DNA of 37,823 nucleotides from Patescibacteria group bacterium (GTDB lineage Bacteria; Patescibacteriota; Minisyncoccia; Phycocordibacterales; UBA9973): positions 1 to 37,823 of the forward strand of contig JBBUAC010000023.1 in the NCBI GenBank assembly GCA_038061035.1. Reading direction: 5' to 3'. Shown piece after piece: positions 2,285 to 37,752 of the stretch. The position numbers and the translations under genes are program-made. The stretch's first letter is position 1; each line of letters opens with the position of its first letter. Under the pieces are notes generated by a model. That model saw nothing but the letters and a program-made list of their open reading frames with translations, had not been told where the DNA came from and did no database searches.

Positions 2285-3421
2285 GTGTATATAAGAATTA
2301 TTAAAAAATCTATAAAAAACCATTTATTTAAGAAAAAAATCATTATTTTATATGGTCCTAGACAAGTTGGCAAAACAACATTAGTTAAAGAATTACTAGA
2401 AGAATTTAATGGCGAAAAATTATATATTTCCTGCGATATCCCATCAAGAAGAGCTTTAATTATAGGTCCAGAACCAGCAATTTTAAAACAAAATTTTGGA
2501 AATGCAAAATTAGTAATTATAGATGAAGCTCAATTGATAGAAAATATTGGAGTAATTTTAAAGGTTTTTGTTGATACTTATCCAGATATACAAATAATAG
2601 CTACTGGTTCAAGCTCTTTTGATCTAGCAAACAAAATTCGTGAACCATTAACGGGTAGAGCGTTTGAGTATATGCTTTATCCACTATCTTATGAAGAAAT
2701 AGCTTCAAAAAATAACTTTACAAAACAAGACCAAGGGGGTTTTCGTATGAGATTTGGCTGGTACCCTGGTATATCGGAATCTATACAAGATGCTACAGAA
2801 CAGCTTGAAATTTTACAAAACAATACTTTATATAAAGATATATTTACTCTTGAACAAATAAAAAAGCCAAAAGTTCTACAAGATATCGTATTGCAATTAG
2901 CATACCGCATCGGTACTGTTATTAGTGTGCAAAACTTGGCTGATGAAATAAAAACAACTCCAAAAACAGTTGAGAGGTATATAGATTTATTAGAGAAAAT
3001 GTTTGTATTAATTCGTATTTATCCATATTCAAGAAATCCTAGTAATGAAAGAAAAAAGGGTTATAAGGTATATTTTATAGATATAGGTATCCGTAATAGT
3101 ATTATTAAAGACCACAAAGCCCTAAACTTACGCAATGATATAGGTGCACTTTTTGAAAATTATTTTATAATGGAAAGAATAAAATATTTATCAAATAATT
3201 TTATTTTTACTAATAAATATTTCTGGCAAAACTATTTACAAGAAGAAGTAGATTATATAGAAGAAAAAGATGGAATACTCACAGCTTTTGAATGTAAATA
3301 TACAGAAAGGTCTAGTAAATCATTGTATTTATTCCAAAATACTTATAAAGAAAGTGTGGTAAAAATAATTAGTCAAAAAAATTATCAAGATTTTATAAAA
3401 AACAATGATATAATAAGTTGA
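2285..3421 (+). CDS. AAA+ ATPase, AAA_14 + DUF4143 architecture (COG1373-like), paralog 1
   Basis: Walker A LYGPRQVGKTTL, Walker B LVIIDEAQ, ATGSSS motif. It resembles the ORF at 19418-20533 along its full length. GTG start, TGA stop. Confidence 0.8.
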   Translation: MYIRIIKKSIKNHLFKKKIIILYGPRQVGKTTLVKELLEEFNGEKLYISCDIPSRRALIIGPEPAILKQNFGNAKLVIIDEAQLIENIGVILKVFVDTYPDIQIIATGSSSFDLANKIREPLTGRAFEYMLYPLSYEEIASKNNFTKQDQGGFRMRFGWYPGISESIQDATEQLEILQNNTLYKDIFTLEQIKKPKVLQDIVLQLAYRIGTVISVQNLADEIKTTPKTVERYIDLLEKMFVLIRIYPYSRNPSNERKKGYKVYFIDIGIRNSIIKDHKALNLRNDIGALFENYFIMERIKYLSNNFIFTNKYFWQNYLQEEVDYIEEKDGILTAFECKYTERSSKSLYLFQNTYKESVVKIISQKNYQDFIKNNDIIS

Positions 3422-4674: not shown

Positions 4675-4959
4675 ATGAATACAATAATGACGGTGCGAAT
4701 AGATAGTAAAATAAAGAGTGAGGCTCAAAAAACTTTTGCAAAAATGGGGTTGGATTTATCTTCTGCTGTTAAATTATTTATGAATCAATCTATCCTTGAA
4801 AAAGGACTTCCTTTCAAGCCTAGAACTGTAAACGGATATACAAAAGAGTTTGAAAACAGAATTCTTAATGAGGACAAACAATTGAGTCGTAATATAAAAA
4901 ATGGTAAATCAAAAGGACATAATTCTATAACAAATCTTTATGCTAAACTAATGAACTAA
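4675..4959 (+). CDS. dinJ: RelB/DinJ family antitoxin
   Basis: N-terminal RHH-like VRIDSKIKSEAQKTFAKMGLDLSSAVKLFMNQSILEKGLPF. The gene ends 3 nt before the toxin gene. Confidence 0.8.
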   Translation: MNTIMTVRIDSKIKSEAQKTFAKMGLDLSSAVKLFMNQSILEKGLPFKPRTVNGYTKEFENRILNEDKQLSRNIKNGKSKGHNSITNLYAKLMN

Positions 4960-4962
4960 AAT

Positions 4963-5232
4963 ATGCTTGTTGTTCACTATACATCATCATACAAACGTTC
5001 GTTTAAAAGATATACGCGTTCTGGAAAGTTTCCGTTAGAAAAACTTACAGAAGTTCTTAATTTTCTAAGAGGGGAAAAGCTATTGCCGAACAAATATCGA
5101 GACCATCAACTGAAAGGAAAGTTAGTAGAATTTAGAGAATGCCATATAGCCCCAGACATCTTACTTATTTATAAAATAGAGGGTAACTATCTAAAACTTA
5201 ATAATTTGGGATCACACGGTGAAACATTTTAA
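4963..5232 (+). CDS. yafQ: YafQ family mRNA interferase toxin
   Basis: KYRDHQLKGKLVEFRECHIAPDILLIYKIEGNYLKLNNLGSHGETF matches the YafQ C-terminal signature. Confidence 0.8.
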   Translation: MLVVHYTSSYKRSFKRYTRSGKFPLEKLTEVLNFLRGEKLLPNKYRDHQLKGKLVEFRECHIAPDILLIYKIEGNYLKLNNLGSHGETF

Positions 5233-5260: not shown

Positions 5261-5354
5261 AAATAATTTTTAGTGTATAATATATATAGCTTTTAAATTA
5301 TTAATATATTAAAATATCTTTATTATAAAAAAATAATTTATGTCAAAAAGAAAT
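5261..5354 (+). repeat. Duplicated copy of the promoter and first codons of the gene at 6618
   Basis: Block AAATAATTTTTAGTGTATAATA (5261-5282) equals 6583-6604. Block TTTATGTCAAAAAGAAAT (5337-5354) equals 6615-6632. Confidence 0.8.
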
Positions 5355-5363
5355 CTTATCTTA

Positions 5364-6497
5364 TTAATTTTCCTCTAATTTTTTCAAGTACTTTTCTGCT
5401 TCCCTTATTTCTATTCCATTTACTATCCTTTCTAATCTCAAATTTTTTACGACTTGGATTCCTTTTAATTTATATTTTTGGGCAAAATAGCTCAACGTAT
5501 CCGAAACCTTATTATCACTAAGTTTCACTTCCACTATTTGATCCACAATATTTTCCTCATTATATACAGCAAAGTCAACTTCTTTATTTTCTTTAGTCTT
5601 TAAAAAACCGAGACTGTGCTTTTTCCCTGTTTTATCTGTTTTTATGACTGTGTGTTTATATAAAGCTAGGGCGACTAGATTCTCAAATCGTACCCCTTCA
5701 TTATTAATTACACCATAATCAAAAAAGTAAATCTTTGGTTCTTTTAAAATAGAGCGGTTTATTTTGTGAGTGTATGGTTTTATGATAAATACAATATATA
5801 ATGCTTCTAATATAGCTATATATTTCTTGACTGTAACACTAGAAATACCAACATCTCGTGCGATAGCACTATAAGAGATAGGGGAGCCGACTTTCGTTTT
5901 TAGTAAATCATAAATCAATCTCACAGTATTCACTTTATCTATTTCTTCAAAATCAAGCACGTCTTGTCTAAGCAGAATATCTATATATACACCTCTCCAA
6001 TGATCTGCTATATTTGTATCTTCTGCCAAAAGTGGTTCAGGAAAACCACTTCTTTCTAATAAGGTGTCTAATGACACTTCTTTATACACATTTTGTAATT
6101 CAGCTAAAGTAAAAGGCATCAAATGATGTAGTCTAAATCTACCAGCCATAGAATCTCCTGCATGTCTGTGTGCGTTCATACTAGCACTACCTGTAATCAA
6201 AATATGTAAATCGTCCTTTTTTGTATCAAAAATTCCCTTTAGGTGTGTTTTCCATTTAGGCATTTTATGGATTTCATCAAAAACAAGCAGATCTACATCT
6301 GGCAACCAGTTGTAATTTTTCATAACCTCTTTATGTTCAATATTATCGTAATTCAAATAAAGTGGATTCTTGTATGATTTCATTATTTCCTTGGCTAGCC
6401 ATGTCTTACCTACTTGTCTTGGACCCACAATAAATACCATTTTCTTTTTTAAATCAGACAATACGTTTTCTTTTACTTTTCTTTGTATATTTTTCAT
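5364..6497 (-). CDS. AAA+ ATPase, AAA_14 + DUF4143 (COG1373-like), paralog 2 (divergent subfamily)
   Basis: Walker A VGPRQVGKTWL, Walker B LLVFDEIHK, ITGSAS motif. Confidence 0.8.
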   Translation of the reverse strand: MKNIQRKVKENVLSDLKKKMVFIVGPRQVGKTWLAKEIMKSYKNPLYLNYDNIEHKEVMKNYNWLPDVDLLVFDEIHKMPKWKTHLKGIFDTKKDDLHILITGSASMNAHRHAGDSMAGRFRLHHLMPFTLAELQNVYKEVSLDTLLERSGFPEPLLAEDTNIADHWRGVYIDILLRQDVLDFEEIDKVNTVRLIYDLLKTKVGSPISYSAIARDVGISSVTVKKYIAILEALYIVFIIKPYTHKINRSILKEPKIYFFDYGVINNEGVRFENLVALALYKHTVIKTDKTGKKHSLGFLKTKENKEVDFAVYNEENIVDQIVEVKLSDNKVSDTLSYFAQKYKLKGIQVVKNLRLERIVNGIEIREAEKYLKKLEEN

Positions 6498-6582
6498 ATA
6501 TGACTATTTTATACGATATTTTAAAAAAGTCAAGACTATTTTAAAAAGCTCTTCCTTTTGGTCAAAGAGGTATTTTACTAGA

Positions 6583-6632
6583 AAATAATTTTTAGTGTAT
6601 AATAAATAATAACTTTTATGTCAAAAAGAAAT
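6583..6632 (+). repeat. Resident promoter and start region of gene 6618, partner of the 5261-5354 repeat
   Basis: Extended -10 TGTATAAT at 6596-6603 and ATGTCAAAAAGAAAT at 6618-6632. Both blocks are repeated upstream of the AAA ATPase cassette. Confidence 0.8.
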
Positions 6633-7988
6633 ACAATATTATTTATAATAGTTCTCATAATTCTAACCACTGGTGTTTTGTGGTATTTTTATTTTAACAA
6701 ATCTACAGACACAATAAATACAAACACAAAAACTGAAGGAGAAAATTTTGTATCTAATTTTTTTAATTTTGGAAAAATAAAAACAAAAGAAGTGGAGGAT
6801 GATTCAACGCCGGTAACCGATATTTCAGAAGAAAACGAAGAAACAACAATAGATATTCAAGAAGGGAATTTGTTTAAGATCTCAAGTATGCCCGTCGCTG
6901 GTTTTACTGTTTTTATGAAAGAAAGATTTAAAGAAATTGCAAATCCAAAAGAAATAGAACAAAACAACTTGAAGGCCAACTTGGAGGTCTTGCCTCCAAG
7001 TGAAAAAAAGGTTACTCCGATAGCTCCACTCACTGAGTTTGTTCCTGCTTTGAGGTATGTAGATAAAGCTACTGGTAATATTTATCAGACTTTTACAGAC
7101 CAAATAAATGAGCGTAAATTTTCTAATATGGAAATAGAAGGTATTTATGAAGCTTATTTTGGCAATAATGGAAACACAGTGATATCGCGATATCTTAAAA
7201 GTTCACCTCTTTTAAGTGGAGAAACAATTATTACTTATTCTGGTTCATTACCAAAAGAAATATTAGGAAATGATTCTGTAGTTGAAAATAATATAAGTGG
7301 ATCTTTTTTACCTGAAAATATAATAGATATGAGTATTTCTCCTAACACAACAAAAATGTTTTATTTATTTAATTGGAAAGAGGGCGTGGTTGGCACAACA
7401 GCTTTCTCTAATGGAGATAATAAGAAACAAATTTTTGATTCTAAATATACAGAGTGGCTCACACAATGGCCAAATGAAAATACAATTACAATTACCACAA
7501 AATCTGCGTCTTTTGTACCAGGATTTATGTATATAATTAATCCAAACAATTCGTCTATTGGTTTAAAAAGAATATTAGGTGGAATAAGGGGGCTGACAAC
7601 ACTTACAAGTCCAAATGGAAAGTTAGTTTTATATAGCAATGACACTGTTTCTTTAAATATCTACGATATAGAAACGGGAGAAGCTCAAACCTTGGGTGTA
7701 AAAAGTTTACCTGAAAAATGTGTTTGGGGAATATCTAGTGATGTTATTTATTGTGCTGTGCCTAAATTGATTGATAATTCTTTTTCATATCCAGATTCTT
7801 GGTATCGCGGGGAAGTGTCTTTTTCAGATGATATTTGGAGAATTGATGTCTCACAAGGAAATGCTAAAATAATATTTAATTCAGAAGAAGAAATAGATGG
7901 AGTTAGACTTATGTTAGACCAAAATGAAGACTTTTTATTTTTTATAAATAAAAAAGATTCTTATCTTTGGGGACTAACGTTGGAATAA
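6618..7988 (+). CDS. Membrane-anchored protein of unknown function (N-terminal TM, possibly a beta-propeller-like extracellular part)
   Basis: 456-aa ORF with TM segment ILFIIVLIILTTGVLWYFYF. I recognise no catalytic motif. Confidence 0.55.
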   Translation: MSKRNTILFIIVLIILTTGVLWYFYFNKSTDTINTNTKTEGENFVSNFFNFGKIKTKEVEDDSTPVTDISEENEETTIDIQEGNLFKISSMPVAGFTVFMKERFKEIANPKEIEQNNLKANLEVLPPSEKKVTPIAPLTEFVPALRYVDKATGNIYQTFTDQINERKFSNMEIEGIYEAYFGNNGNTVISRYLKSSPLLSGETIITYSGSLPKEILGNDSVVENNISGSFLPENIIDMSISPNTTKMFYLFNWKEGVVGTTAFSNGDNKKQIFDSKYTEWLTQWPNENTITITTKSASFVPGFMYIINPNNSSIGLKRILGGIRGLTTLTSPNGKLVLYSNDTVSLNIYDIETGEAQTLGVKSLPEKCVWGISSDVIYCAVPKLIDNSFSYPDSWYRGEVSFSDDIWRIDVSQGNAKIIFNSEEEIDGVRLMLDQNEDFLFFINKKDSYLWGLTLE

Positions 7989-19417: not shown

Positions 19418-20533
19418 TTAAGTGTTTAATATATCTGTTATGTTTTTTGAAGTTATCAAAGTGACAGGAGTATCTGGATATGCATTTTTCCAGGCACGGG
19501 TTTTGATTGAAGTTTCACTCCACTTACATTCAAAAGCTTCTAATTTTTCATATGTTTCTTCTACTAAATCAATCTCACTGCCATCTTTGGTTCGCCAAAA
19601 ATATGGACGAGTATGGTTACCTGATTTTTGATATTGTTTTATTCTTTCACTTATAAAAAAGTTTTCAAACAAAGACCCCTTATCATGTCTTTTGTCTAAA
19701 GAATTAAAATTATCAAGAAGAGCATTTTTTATTCCAGTATCATAAAAGAATATTTTTTCAAATCTAGTAACTTCATTACGTTTGTTTTTAGAAAGTGGCG
19801 GAAGTCTAAATATTATAAATGCTTGTTCTAATATTTTTATATATTGCATAATTGTTTGTCTGCTAACTTCCAATTTTTGAGCTATCTCATTATACGAAAC
19901 TTGGTTACCTGATTGTAAAGCAAGTAATCTAACTAATTTTTCTAAAATAATTGGCTTTCTAACTGTATCTATTTTTAAAATATCTCTAAAAAGATAATCA
20001 TTTGCAATAATTTTTAAATCAAAAGAGGGGTTTGTTGAAGAGATGATTCCAGGATACATTCCATACAATATTCTTTGTTCTAAAAGTCTCTTAGATTCCA
20101 ATTCACCAACAGTGTTTGAGTATTCTTGATATGAAATTGGATAAAGCATAAATGGTATATTCCTACCAGTTAAAGGTTCTAAAATTTTATTTGCCAACTC
20201 AAAAGAAGAAGAACCTGTAGCTATTATTTTTATTTCTGGATAAGTGTCGTGAAGAAGTTTTAAAGAAAGACCGATATTTTCCACTCTTTGGGCTTCATCA
20301 AGTACTACAAAAGTAGCATTTTTTATAAAAGCTTTCATTGCAGAAGAGGTTTTATTTGAAAAAGCTTCACGAATATCAGGTTCATCACACGAAAGGTAAA
20401 GACCATTGTGTTCTTTGATAATTTCTTTTACAAGTGTTGTTTTGCCAACTTGTCTAGCTCCATAGAGTATGGTAATTCTCGGGTCATTTAAAGATTCAAT
20501 TATTTTATTTTTTAACCATCTTTTTATAAGCAT
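19418..20533 (-). CDS. AAA+ ATPase, AAA_14 + DUF4143 (COG1373-like), paralog 3
   Basis: Walker A LYGARQVGKTTL, Walker B FVVLDEAQ, ATGSSS motif. TATAAT (20541-20546 on the plus strand as ATTATA) lies 7 nt upstream of the ATG. Confidence 0.85.
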   Translation of the reverse strand: MLIKRWLKNKIIESLNDPRITILYGARQVGKTTLVKEIIKEHNGLYLSCDEPDIREAFSNKTSSAMKAFIKNATFVVLDEAQRVENIGLSLKLLHDTYPEIKIIATGSSSFELANKILEPLTGRNIPFMLYPISYQEYSNTVGELESKRLLEQRILYGMYPGIISSTNPSFDLKIIANDYLFRDILKIDTVRKPIILEKLVRLLALQSGNQVSYNEIAQKLEVSRQTIMQYIKILEQAFIIFRLPPLSKNKRNEVTRFEKIFFYDTGIKNALLDNFNSLDKRHDKGSLFENFFISERIKQYQKSGNHTRPYFWRTKDGSEIDLVEETYEKLEAFECKWSETSIKTRAWKNAYPDTPVTLITSKNITDILNT

Positions 20534-20624: not shown

Positions 20625-20702
20625 TTAATCTTTTTCAATTCCTAAATGTTCATAGGCTTTATTTGTAGCAATGCGTTCGCGGGCGGTGAGTTCGGGAAGC
20701 GG
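20625..20702 (-). pseudogene. Orphan fragment encoding a RuvB C-terminus
   Basis: The minus strand translates to PLPELTARERIATNKAYEHLGIEKD*. Compare the intact RuvB end TPRGRMATQKAYEHLGFDLPEN*. Nucleotide similarity to 21331-21400 is roughly 75% by eye. Confidence 0.7.
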
Positions 20703-20704
20703 GG

Positions 20705-20959
20705 TTATTGGTCGGTGTATTGATGAAGAACTGAGGTCACAAGTGTCTGATATGGTATACCTTTTTCTACTGCGCGGACTTTAAGCTTCGCAAGGTCACG
20801 CAAAGATAGGCGGATATTGATATTTTTGGTTTTGTCGAGTGTGGATTTAGCAATTGACTGGAATCTTTTTAATTCACTTTTTGGCCTAGTAATCATTTTG
20901 TCATTTTCAATCGCGCTTAATATTTCTTCTTCTTCTTTTGTTAGTTCATAGTATTTCAT
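20705..20959 (-). CDS. brnA: BrnA family antitoxin
   Basis: C-terminal INIRLSLRDLAKLKVRAVEKGIPYQTLVTSVLHQY. Confidence 0.8.
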   Translation of the reverse strand: MKYYELTKEEEEILSAIENDKMITRPKSELKRFQSIAKSTLDKTKNINIRLSLRDLAKLKVRAVEKGIPYQTLVTSVLHQYTDQ

Positions 20960-20960
20960 A

Positions 20961-21245
20961 TTATTTTTTCTTTTTATTAATAATAAATTTTTTCGTCATT
21001 TTTCTGCTTGGGATAATTGTTTTCAAAAATATTTTTTCGTCGTCTTCTACAAAAGGAACAATATAAGCGTATTCTCTTATCTCGACAATAAGGACGCTTT
21101 GTGAAGGATATCTTGTCTTGTTTGGATGATCAGATATCTCAATCGTACTACCATTTTGGATTGCTAGGACAACTTCTTCAAATCCTACATTTCGTTCTGC
21201 TTTGAGTTTATCATTTTTTTCAATATTCCAATCAAAATACTTCAT
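20961..21245 (-). CDS. brnT: BrnT family (DUF497/COG2929) toxin
   Basis: YFDWNIEKNDKLKAERNVGFEEVV N-terminal signature. The toxin precedes the antitoxin with a 1-nt gap. TATACT lies 6 nt upstream of the ATG. Confidence 0.7.
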   Translation of the reverse strand: MKYFDWNIEKNDKLKAERNVGFEEVVLAIQNGSTIEISDHPNKTRYPSQSVLIVEIREYAYIVPFVEDDEKIFLKTIIPSRKMTKKFIINKKKK

Positions 21246-21327: not shown

Positions 21328-22332
21328 TTAGTTTTCCGGAAGATCAAATCCCAAATGCTCATATGCTTTTTGTGTAGCCATACGTCCACGAGGTGTACGC
21401 TCCAAAAGACCGAGTTGTATTAAATATGGTTCTGTCACTTCTTCTATGGTTGCTTCTTCTTCTGAAGTTGCGGCACTAATTGTTTTTAAACCAACAGGGC
21501 CACCGTTAAATTTTTCAATAAGTATTTCTAAAAATTTTCTGTCTGAAGAATTTAAACCAATTTCATCAATAGCGAGCATAGTAAGTGCTTCTCCTACTGT
21601 TTTTTTGTCTAAATTCTTTTTATGTACTTGTGCAAAATCTCGTACTCTTTTTAAAAAATAATTTGCCATACGAGGAGTAAACCTACTTCTTTTTGCTATT
21701 TCTTCTAGTGCATCTTCTTCTAATTTTGTTTCAAGCAATTTACTTGATCTTTGTATTATTTTTCCAATTTCTTCATTTGAATAAAATTCTAAACGAAAAA
21801 CTCCACCTGAGAATCGCGAACGAAGAGGGGATGAGACCAATGCTACACGAGTCGTCGCAGCTATTAGTGTAAAAGGTGGAAGATCGAGTTGTATTGTTCT
21901 GGCAGAAGGACCTTTTCCTATTATGATATCCAATACACCGGATTCCATTGCTGGATACAATATTTCTTCAACCATTTTATTTAATCTATGAATTTCATCT
22001 ATAAATAAAATATTACCACTTGAGAGATTTGTGAGAATAGATGCGAGGTCACCTACTTTTTCAATAGCAGGTCCTGAAGTTATTTTCATTTGTCTTCCTG
22101 TTTCATTTGCTATAAGGTGCGCTAATGTTGTTTTTCCTAATCCAGGTGGCCCATAAAAAAGTATGTGTTCAGGAATATGCCCACGCTCCTTGGCTGCCAA
22201 AAGAAGTATTTTAACATTGTCTTTTATGTGTTTTTGGCCAACATATTCATCCCATTTAGTAGGACGAAGGGTTTGATCTAAGTAGGTATCACCAACACCA
22301 TTTTGATTTTTTTTGTTTTGTTTACTTGACAT
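21328..22332 (-). CDS. ruvB: Holliday junction branch migration helicase RuvB
   Basis: Walker A GPPGLGKTTLA, Walker B LFIDEIHRL, arginine finger region. Confidence 0.97.
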   Translation of the reverse strand: MSSKQNKKNQNGVGDTYLDQTLRPTKWDEYVGQKHIKDNVKILLLAAKERGHIPEHILFYGPPGLGKTTLAHLIANETGRQMKITSGPAIEKVGDLASILTNLSSGNILFIDEIHRLNKMVEEILYPAMESGVLDIIIGKGPSARTIQLDLPPFTLIAATTRVALVSSPLRSRFSGGVFRLEFYSNEEIGKIIQRSSKLLETKLEEDALEEIAKRSRFTPRMANYFLKRVRDFAQVHKKNLDKKTVGEALTMLAIDEIGLNSSDRKFLEILIEKFNGGPVGLKTISAATSEEEATIEEVTEPYLIQLGLLERTPRGRMATQKAYEHLGFDLPEN

Positions 22333-30067: not shown

Positions 30068-30545
30068 GTTTTTAAAAGAAAATATTGTAATACTTCATAA
30101 TATACGAAGTATAGAAAATGTTGGTGCAATGTTTCGTACTTGTGACGCTGTAGGTATAGATAAAATATATTTATCTGGATACACTCCGACACCACTTGAT
30201 AGATTTGGCAGAAAAAGAAAAGATTTAGCAAAGTCTGCACTAGGGGCAGAGGAATTTGTGCCATGGGAGCAGAAGAAAAATTTTTTTTCTTTAATAAAAA
30301 AACTTAAAATACAGGGTTTTAATATTATAGGGATAGAGCAAGATAAAAATTCTGTGAATTATAAAAAATTAAATTTTAAATTAAAAGATAAAAATGTTTT
30401 TATTGTTGGGTCAGAAGTTACAGGTATATCAAAAAATATTTTAACAAAGTGTAGTGTTATAGTTGAGATACCAATGAAAGGTAAAAAAGAATCTCTTAAT
30501 GTATCTGTAGCACTGGGTGTAGTTTTATTTTCTAGTATAATATAA
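30057..30545 (+). CDS. SpoU/TrmH family RNA 2'-O-methyltransferase
   Basis: NIRSIENVGAMFRTCDAVG, GSEVTGIS, IPMKGKKESLNVSVALGVVLF (SPOUT knot motifs). Confidence 0.85.
   Translation: MVNKFLKENIVILHNIRSIENVGAMFRTCDAVGIDKIYLSGYTPTPLDRFGRKRKDLAKSALGAEEFVPWEQKKNFFSLIKKLKIQGFNIIGIEQDKNSVNYKKLNFKLKDKNVFIVGSEVTGISKNILTKCSVIVEIPMKGKKESLNVSVALGVVLFSSII
30487..30536 (+). repeat. 50-bp direct repeat, left copy (3' end of the trmH-like gene)
   Basis: AAGAATCTCTTAATGTATCTGTAGCACTGGGTGTAGTTTTATTTTCTAGT is identical to 37663-37712. Confidence 0.95.
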
Positions 30546-30550
30546 AGATT

Positions 30551-37585: not shown

Positions 37586-37662
37586 GTGCGGAGTATTAAT
37601 GATACTACATATAAAGTAACTATAGTTAAAATAGTGTAGTAAGGACGGTTCCTGCTATAACT

Positions 37663-37712
37663 AAGAATCTCTTAATGTATCTGTAGCACTGGGTGTAGTT
37701 TTATTTTCTAGT
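37663..37712 (+). repeat. 50-bp direct repeat, right copy (orphan 3' end of the trmH-like gene)
   Basis: Identical to 30487-30536, and continues TTA TAA in the same frame. Confidence 0.95.
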
Positions 37713-37720
37713 TTATAAAA

Positions 37721-37752
37721 AACTTACAGAAATACAAACTTTTCTGTAAGTT
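37721..37752 (+). terminator. Intrinsic terminator following the orphan trmH 3' end
   Basis: 12-bp stem AACTTACAGAAA / TTTCTGTAAGTT with an 8-nt loop, then a T-rich tail. Confidence 0.75.

Follow-up and report, generated by a model that had tools for sequence, protein, structure and literature searches.

Insertion with long target duplication is described by Furuta, Abe and Kobayashi (2010; PMC2853133), who cite Nobusato et al. (2000), as a property of restriction-modification units: the repeats often span start or stop codons and equal a sequence present in single copy in relatives, solitary nuclease genes (mcrA) also occur as cargo, and the hosts are mostly naturally competent bacteria. A second mode, homology-facilitated illegitimate recombination, is defined in PMC3240628 and, like the gene-end displacement by type VI secretion system (T6SS) effector/immunity genes of Vibrio cholerae (PMC5361080), joins one end of the incoming DNA by homology and the other illegitimately, so that the host's own gene end becomes a displaced downstream orphan, with arrays and re-use of the site as a consequence. 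Here we describe a locus that combines features of both, in a window that comprises the entire 37,823-nucleotide (nt) contig JBBUAC010000023.1 (37.8 kb), from a Patescibacteria genome bin of 461 kb (29% G+C, 86% complete). At this locus the gene for an AAA_14/DUF4143 ATPase, designated ATPase2, interrupts the start of a conserved gene, g6618, and the start of g6618 is found on both sides of it. The ATPase2 locus is a real, well-defined insertion scar; the evidence favors host-driven gene-end displacement, and AAA_14/DUF4143 is a new cargo family for a known mode of insertion.

The promoter and first codons of g6618 (6618-7988, forward strand), which encodes a conserved 456-aa membrane-anchored protein of a type IV secretion system (T4SS)-like cluster and lies beside jag, yidC and dnaA, occur twice, as a preliminary description of this DNA had claimed. 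Block A (AAATAATTTTTAGTGTATAATA) lies at 5261-5282 and 6583-6604 and is extendable to 26 nt (5261-5286 and 6583-6608; 25 of 26 positions identical), and block B (TTTATGTCAAAAAGAAAT) lies at 5337-5354 and 6615-6632 (18 of 18 identical). Shuffled sequences gave an expectation of 0.00 matches to block A, and the 461-kb assembly contains no third copy of block A at up to three mismatches or of block B at up to one, and a common promoter motif is excluded within this genome. In copy 1, block A (5261-5286, forward strand) retains a -10 element, TATAAT, at 5276-5281, lacks a good -35 and is not called by a promoter scan; it is followed by a spacer of 50 nt (5287-5336), against 6 nt in copy 2, and by block B with the displaced 5' end of g6618 (5337-5378, forward strand). 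The frame at 5340-5378 reads ATG TCA AAA AGA AAT CTT ATC TTA TTA ATT TTC CTC TAA, that is, MSKRNLILLI as far as 5369, with the stop codon at 5376-5378; its ninth codon overlaps the ATPase2 stop codon (5364-5366). The 12-codon reading frame running into the ATPase stop had been recognized in the preliminary description, and it can now be refined, since homology to true g6618 starts extends through codon 10 (5369), where the remnant is identical at 28 of 30 positions to the gene of a relative (L017). Because homology reaches codon 10, the duplicated unit is set at 5261-5369 (109 nt) and 6583-6647 (65 nt), the two differing by a 44-nt indel that makes the distance from block A to the ATG longer in copy 1. 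Copy 2 (6583-6647, forward strand) consists of block A, with its -10 element at 6598-6603, block B and codons 1 to 10 of the functional gene. The junction between cassette and remnant falls at about 5369/5370, directly at the ATPase2 stop, and the DNA between the copies contains, as had been stated, only the minus-strand ATPase open reading frame (ORF; 5364-6497) and 85 nt of upstream DNA with its promoter region; no transposase, integrase or other mobility gene is present in the unit. ATPase2 with its promoter is a 1.2-kb one-gene accessory cassette, at approximately 5370-6582, lying 10 codons into g6618.

Comparison with relatives shows the arrangement without the insert. The gene order TraG/VirB4, orf1247, pilin, g6618, jag, yidC, dnaA, dnaN, PBP1 is kept in 15 of 15 genomes of the same genus, and ATPase1 (a paralog of ATPase2), the toxin-antitoxin genes RelB/YafQ and ATPase2 are all absent from this locus in every one of them; g6618 has a single start, 10 to 20 nt behind the upstream gene, with neither ATPase nor block A. 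The 15 orthologous starts give a genus consensus of MSKRN[LFI]ILLII, to which the remnant is nearer than the functional copy. Homologs of g6618 are found in 38 of 41 related genomes at a conserved position, and searches of Pfam and NCBIfam returned no family match for the protein. The local structure at ATPase2 is identical in 13 independent assemblies, which excludes an assembly artefact. Within the species no empty site was found, as all 13 contigs that encode the exact YafQ protein carry the ATPase2 insert, and no database record matched the exact g6618 protein. One contig (L096) considered as a variant junction was rejected, being the same sequence at 99.6% identity with a miscalled ORF.

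The character of the differences between repeat copies, which at other loci lie mainly at synonymous sites, is informative with regard to their origin. In six pairs of repeats that cover coding ends, 27 of the differing codons are synonymous and 9 are non-synonymous, whereas random change would yield 21.5% synonymous codon differences; the bias has a P of 1e-11 against neutral decay and of 1.5e-6 against decay confined to the remnant. Thus, both copies evolved as coding DNA in different lineages and represent different alleles, and duplication in situ followed by neutral decay is rejected.

A groundwater contig, L093, contains an ATPase 85% identical to ATPase2 at the same gene, g6618. Its remnant of about 32 codons, with an internal stop, lies 19 nt behind the stop of the upstream gene, as in cassette-free relatives, and is thus in its native context, without block A; 60 nt of filler separate it from the ATPase stop, and this 3' junction is unlike that in the window, which is at codon 10 and at the stop. 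A block-A-like promoter (TTTAGTGTATAATAAATAA) occurs only beside the functional gene, next to the cassette. The two loci therefore share the promoter side and differ in the 3' joint, given that TTTAGTGTATAATAAATAA stands beside the functional gene while the junctions between remnant and stop differ; and because the block accompanies only the functional gene in L093, block A is probably not plain target sequence. The proportion of synonymous differences (pS) between the two cassettes is 0.54, compared with 0.62-0.75 for the flanking genes (dnaA, rnpA, yidD, yidC, jag and g6618), and the corresponding estimates of synonymous divergence (dS) are 0.95 and 1.3 to >2.3; the L093 cassette is younger than its flanks. 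The AT-rich spacers beside the L093 cassette also contain GC-rich, hairpin-like inserts at 5775-5850 and 7137-7195 (ccccctagcccccttatcaggggg; accgtcgggtgt twice).

Comparable scars occur at other loci of the family. For every family ORF collected, the 260 nt upstream were aligned against the 260 nt downstream; strong direct flank repeats were obtained at 6 or 7 of 22 loci in the genus (32-134 nt, the count depending on a 24-nt palindromic pair) and at 4 of 26 in the order (62-121 nt). As a control, ATPase2, with a flank score of 27, was the sole ORF to reach a score of at least 24 among the 161 ORFs of at least 250 aa in its genome. The repeats are ends of neighboring genes, among them an M23 peptidase gene, secY (twice) and rpmB with its terminator. 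Between the upstream copy and the ATPase start codon lie 26-112 nt; the downstream copy follows the ATPase stop after 0-48 nt or starts within the end of the ORF, and the intact neighbor lies on the ATPase promoter side in all seven resolvable cases. No shared end motif or inverted repeat was seen at ten cassette boundaries, apart from the promoter/operator. The same spot at the secY 3' end is occupied by two ATPases that are only 46% identical, while SecY itself is 83% identical (in ATPase orientation, 1425-1456 and 2641-2672 in L033 of genome G043; 1377-1435 and 2585-2643 in L040 of genome G088); each of the two reading frames continues in phase into the SecY remnant (...IKKVDAQISMREY*), and the pair suggests either exchange of cassettes at an existing bracket or a hotspot.

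Within the window, the same kind of scar is found with other cargo. On one side of the BrnT/BrnA cassette (20705-21245), directly after brnA, lies a displaced remnant of the RuvB C terminus (20635-20676, reverse strand), and on the other the functional end of ruvB (21344-21385, reverse strand); remnant and functional end (RIATNKAYEHLGI and RMATQKAYEHLGF, respectively) differ by four synonymous and three non-synonymous codons. A 65-nt direct repeat of the end of a SpoU/TrmH gene (30482-30546, forward strand, and 37658-37722; 59 of 65 identical) brackets a 7.1-kb islet with genes for a Type ISP restriction-modification enzyme of 1029 aa and for an LCAT-like lipase. As the ruvB end (with BrnTA) and the trmH end (with the restriction islet) bear scars of the same kind, the scar is not specific to the ATPase.

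We suggest that the ATPase2 event was an insertion with long target duplication that arose by homology-anchored gene-end displacement after DNA uptake, a reading that we hold to be probable, with moderate confidence, and beside which a transposon-like staggered cut is the less likely. Incoming DNA from a related genome would have brought the cassette together with a neighboring gene end; on the promoter side of the cassette it would have been joined by homologous recombination inside the target gene, and on the far side by an illegitimate joint at or just past the ATPase stop. The process would be one of homology-facilitated illegitimate recombination, or gene-end displacement, in which host recombination is the driver and the ATPase is cargo. 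The resident start of g6618 (5261-5369) would have been displaced as a dead remnant beside the 3' end of ATPase2, and the intact start at 6583-6647 on its promoter side, with a -35 element from the end of the cassette, would keep g6618 working; the best promoter call for g6618 is TTTACT-18-TATAAT (10 of 12 positions; 6574-6603), with the -35 at 6574-6579 on the forward strand in the outer end of the cassette and the -10 in block A. On this reading the site is a hotspot, RelB/YafQ having entered the same junction in a separate event, and the simplest history would comprise two nested events (RelB/YafQ and the ATPase cassette), each linked to block A, with gene conversion between the copies as an alternative. 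The shared promoter side, the variable 3' joint, the younger cassette and the scars with other cargo fit a homology anchor in the target and an illegitimate far joint. Of the interpretation in the preliminary description, a compact single-gene cassette a few codons into g6618 with its start duplicated is upheld; a transposon-style target duplication made by the cassette itself is not, in view of the allelic copies, the scars with other cargo and the pattern of block A in L093.

A number of observations weigh against homology-anchored displacement, at least in its simplest form. Copy 1 has native-like intergenic DNA before its ATG, with block A further upstream beside YafQ, which is a poor fit: when copy 1 and the L093 remnant are aligned over 52 columns, among them about 25 nt ahead of the ATG, the stretch 5318-5339, which extends into block B, is similar to the native intergenic sequence in front of the L093 remnant. 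Blocks A and B together are identical at 43 of 44 positions, yet codons 6 to 10 differ at 6 of 15 bases, and this unevenness needs gene conversion or a second event beyond a single encounter of donor and recipient. The functional start, MSKRNTILFI, is closer than the remnant to the nearest relative, the opposite of what the simplest form of displacement predicts. In all ten cases the distance from the stop to the 3' boundary is 0-48 nt, a narrower spread than random illegitimate joints would produce and perhaps the mark of a defined element end. The closest cassette-free relative has a g6618 protein only 58% identical, and an empty site at base level is lacking. Finally, competence of this lineage is presumed by analogy with the Saccharibacteria, also Patescibacteria, which are naturally competent (PMC10633639, PMC10187176).

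In other accounts the cassette plays a more active part. The ATPase, with its AAA+, winged-helix and PD-(D/E)xK regions, might cut near gene ends, in a staggered or distant fashion, and drive its own insertion or homing, the repeats then being target-site duplications. The nuclease motif (D308, E323, K325) and the ATPase site are intact, the AAA+ part resembles the transposition ATPases MuB and TnsC among many others, repeats are present at about 20% of family loci, the boundaries of the unit are tight at both ends, and Furuta et al. proposed double-strand breakage as a common property behind such insertions (PMC2853133). We nevertheless regard self-mobilization as quite unlikely, as the same scars surround BrnTA and the 7-kb islet, which lack this ATPase, the copies differ mostly at synonymous positions, which is impossible for a fresh duplication, the repeats vary from 32 to 134 nt and their targets are unrelated in sequence, terminal inverted repeats and a shared end motif other than the promoter were not seen, and the paralogs in the window are too dissimilar (26-42% identity) for recent intragenomic copying. 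A homing endonuclease would be compatible with the nuclease fold in the structural model, and no target sequence is common to the sites. The more specific proposition that AAA_14/DUF4143 is the engine of a recombinase-less selfish element that cuts DNA close to the ends of conserved genes and enters as a copy along with a replacement end is, in our judgement, distinctly doubtful. A classical transposon or insertion sequence was rejected on the grounds that the unit ends lack inverted repeats, the repeats vary in length and no transposase domain is present.

Excision and reinsertion through a circle is unlikely. Recombination between the repeats would release the cassette with one repeat, and the circle would re-enter a homologous gene end by a single crossover, recreating chimeric repeats, in the manner of the "virus-like cycle" hypothesized for restriction units (PMC2853133). 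Such a cycle would account for chimeric copies with allelic differences of the synonymous type, for the re-use of genes (g6618 in two lineages and the secY end by two ATPases) and, if crossovers took place in them, for blocks A and B being nearly identical; against it, the 3' junctions differ between the window and L093, whereas a circle carrying its junctions would retain them, and homology of 18-26 nt is short for a RecA crossover. Direct repeats at gene ends are also typical of integrative elements, in which a recombinase encoded elsewhere would act on the repeats as att sites; this we consider very improbable, for the unit has no recombinase, the ten cassette junctions lack a conserved core sequence, and even close cassette relatives have repeats that differ in sequence and length with each target. 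An integrase-type element was rejected on the same basis, cassettes that are 62-85% identical being situated at the g6618 start, the M23 end and upstream of clpP with unrelated repeats. A last explanation is an error of assembly, or a likeness between AT-rich promoter and start sequences that arose by chance. An exact scan of metagenomes for block A, which yielded no empty site in a relative, found its 22-mer in eight unrelated metagenome contigs (L054/L055, L050-L052 and others) in promoter-like settings, once right after TTGACAG, where it completes a promoter, and block A alone is for this reason a promoter-like sequence able to recur. We take this explanation as refuted all the same: a single gene is flanked on both sides by two blocks in the same order, neither of which recurs elsewhere in the genome, similarity to g6618 orthologs extends as far as codon 10, the 13 assemblies concur and the pattern recurs at other loci.

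ATPase2 (5364-6497, reverse strand) is a protein of 377 aa with an AAA+ ATPase domain, a lid, a winged helix and a PD-(D/E)xK nuclease domain, its final codon and stop lying inside the g6618 remnant; ortholog C termini end in ...LEE* and ATPase2 in ...LEEN*, having read one codon into the remnant. It matches Pfam AAA_14 (1.4e-26, 93.4 bits; cut-off, 27) and DUF4143 (1.5e-22, 80.4 bits; cut-off, 28.1) as well as PADLOC PDC-S01 (PDLC04789; 6.5e-53 across residues 1-356), and all three paralogs in the window give full-length hidden Markov model matches to PDC-S01/AAA_14 plus DUF4143. Residues G30, K31 and T32, D74 and E75, and D308, E323 and K325 are invariant among 46 sequences, so that the Walker A and B and PD-(D/E)xK motifs are intact, and they map to the P-loop and the C-terminal core of an AlphaFold model (predicted local distance difference test [pLDDT] score, 90.8) that comprises an AAA+ domain, a lid, a winged helix and a C-terminal alpha-beta-beta-beta-alpha-beta core. 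The N-terminal part of the model superposes on RuvB, Orc1/Cdc6, MuB, TnsC and STAND ATPases, and a search of the ATPase2 sequence against solved structures gave no match at an E value of 0.01 or below. The fold is restriction endonuclease-like, and no methyltransferase is present in the unit. DUF4143 figures in PMC3424549 among the PD-(D/E)XK nucleases of unknown function; the link to defense that had been proposed for the family is borne out to the extent that PDC-S01 is a candidate antiphage family in PADLOC, and the papers searched on DUF4143 yielded neither a phage protection experiment nor a treatment of mobility. ATPase2 is most likely a stand-alone nucleoside triphosphate-dependent nuclease of this defense-candidate family, which would repress its own leaderless promoter through the winged helix. 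The family is patchy, occurring in 14 of 151 genomes in the genus and 50 of 401 in the order. In related genome bins, many DUF4143 genes are found no more than about 1 kb from the end of a contig, the pattern to be expected where strain-variable insertions interrupt assembly.

The cassette promoter/operator (6498-6582, reverse strand) has a -35 element, TTGACT (6533-6528), inside AATAGTCTTGACT, a -10 element, TAAAAT (6511-6506), and a second ATAGTC just before the ATG. In an alignment of five promoters of the ATPase2 group (window, 6498-6545, reverse strand; L093, 5870-6000; L097, 355-401; L049, 6177-6225; L048, 8683-8730), AATAGTCTTGACT is invariant, the -10 lies about 8-10 nt ahead of the ATG and the second ATAGTC is at the start; the operator-like box is present twice in the L093 promoter. 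The AATAGTCTTGACT and ATAGTC boxes are probably an operator for the winged helix of ATPase2 itself, and the arrangement of the sequence suggests autoregulation and leaderless mRNA for genes of this group. The short contig L097 (1-401) carries a relative 78% identical to ATPase2, divergently oriented 88 nt upstream of clpP, at a third site for the subgroup.

Two further paralogs, noted earlier at 2285-3421 and 19418-20533, are indeed present, both in lineage-specific insertions. ATPase1 (2285-3421, forward strand) is situated between orf1247 and the pilin/VanY gene and has its own TTGACT-17-TAGAAT promoter; a relative 74% identical to it lies behind rpmB in another genome and has a 134-nt flank repeat. 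ATPase3 (19418-20533, reverse strand) is in a block of about 2.9 kb inserted between ruvB and yebC. These two genes are direct neighbors in three of five relatives, and in the remaining two no YebC match lay between ruvB and ruvC; in the window they are split by BrnTA, ATPase3 and one further ORF. Flank repeats above background were not found at ATPase1 or ATPase3. The three ATPases are mutually 26-42% identical and were therefore acquired separately. The suggestion that all three lie beside toxin-antitoxin pairs or decayed genes holds for the pairs at two of the three, and decayed neighbors were not found. RelB (4675-4959, forward strand; Pfam RelB, 3.7e-10) and YafQ (4963-5232, forward strand; Pfam YafQ_toxin, 2.7e-26) form a lineage-specific cassette (4675-5232) between the pilin/VanY gene and g6618 that is missing from the site in the 15 relatives. 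The contig as a whole carries dnaA, dnaN, yidC and jag beside the T4SS-like cluster, a layout described for Patescibacteria (PMC12102498); matching sequence was found in groundwater assemblies, and relatives carry the labels Nomurabacteria or Paceibacterota.

AAA_14/DUF4143 genes rank with the most common accessory genes in bacteria and archaea that still lack an explanation. Our data suggest that the family enters genomes as self-promoted one-gene cassettes that dock at conserved gene ends with a replacement end, leaving the footprint known for restriction genes, and such docking would account for its patchy spread. The bracket provides a sequence signature for recent gene flow in uncultured, ultra-small bacteria, and the synonymous-difference test separates displacement between donor and recipient from true target duplication and could be applied to older restriction-gene cases. 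If the ATPase were the engine after all, a very common family of defense candidates would make up a novel class of bacterial and archaeal mobile genes of the homing type.

When prophage e14 inserts at icd in E. coli, by means of an integrase and a fixed att site, it likewise supplies a new end for the gene and leaves the old one displaced as a pseudo-end; unlike e14, the ATPase2 unit contains no recombinase, and the targets vary. The entry for PDC-S01/AAA_14 plus DUF4143, COG1373 "predicted AAA+ ATPase", is silent on mobility, and defense is given only as a candidate function. In common with the long target duplications of restriction-modification units (PMC2853133), the ATPase2 locus is a small unit with neither transposase nor integrase, flanked by unique direct repeats of more than 30 bp and of variable length from site to site, which often span a start or stop codon, so that the neighboring gene survives; the single-copy comparison rests on 15 relatives with one g6618 start, at most 58% protein identity and no block A. 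It differs in its cargo, an AAA_14/DUF4143 ATPase-nuclease rather than a demonstrated restriction enzyme, so that the locus is not filed as a restriction-modification unit, in the allelic, synonymous character of the differences between repeat copies, here and in relatives, and in that the displaced gene draws part of its promoter from the side of the cassette. The arrays of V. cholerae involve displaced 3' ends, whereas the displaced piece here is a 5' end with its promoter, and the present case is known from sequence rather than from an observed pair of donor and recipient. The likeness to that system and to homology-facilitated illegitimate recombination lies in one homologous and one illegitimate end, in a resident gene end left as a downstream orphan and in the arrays and re-use of sites that follow.

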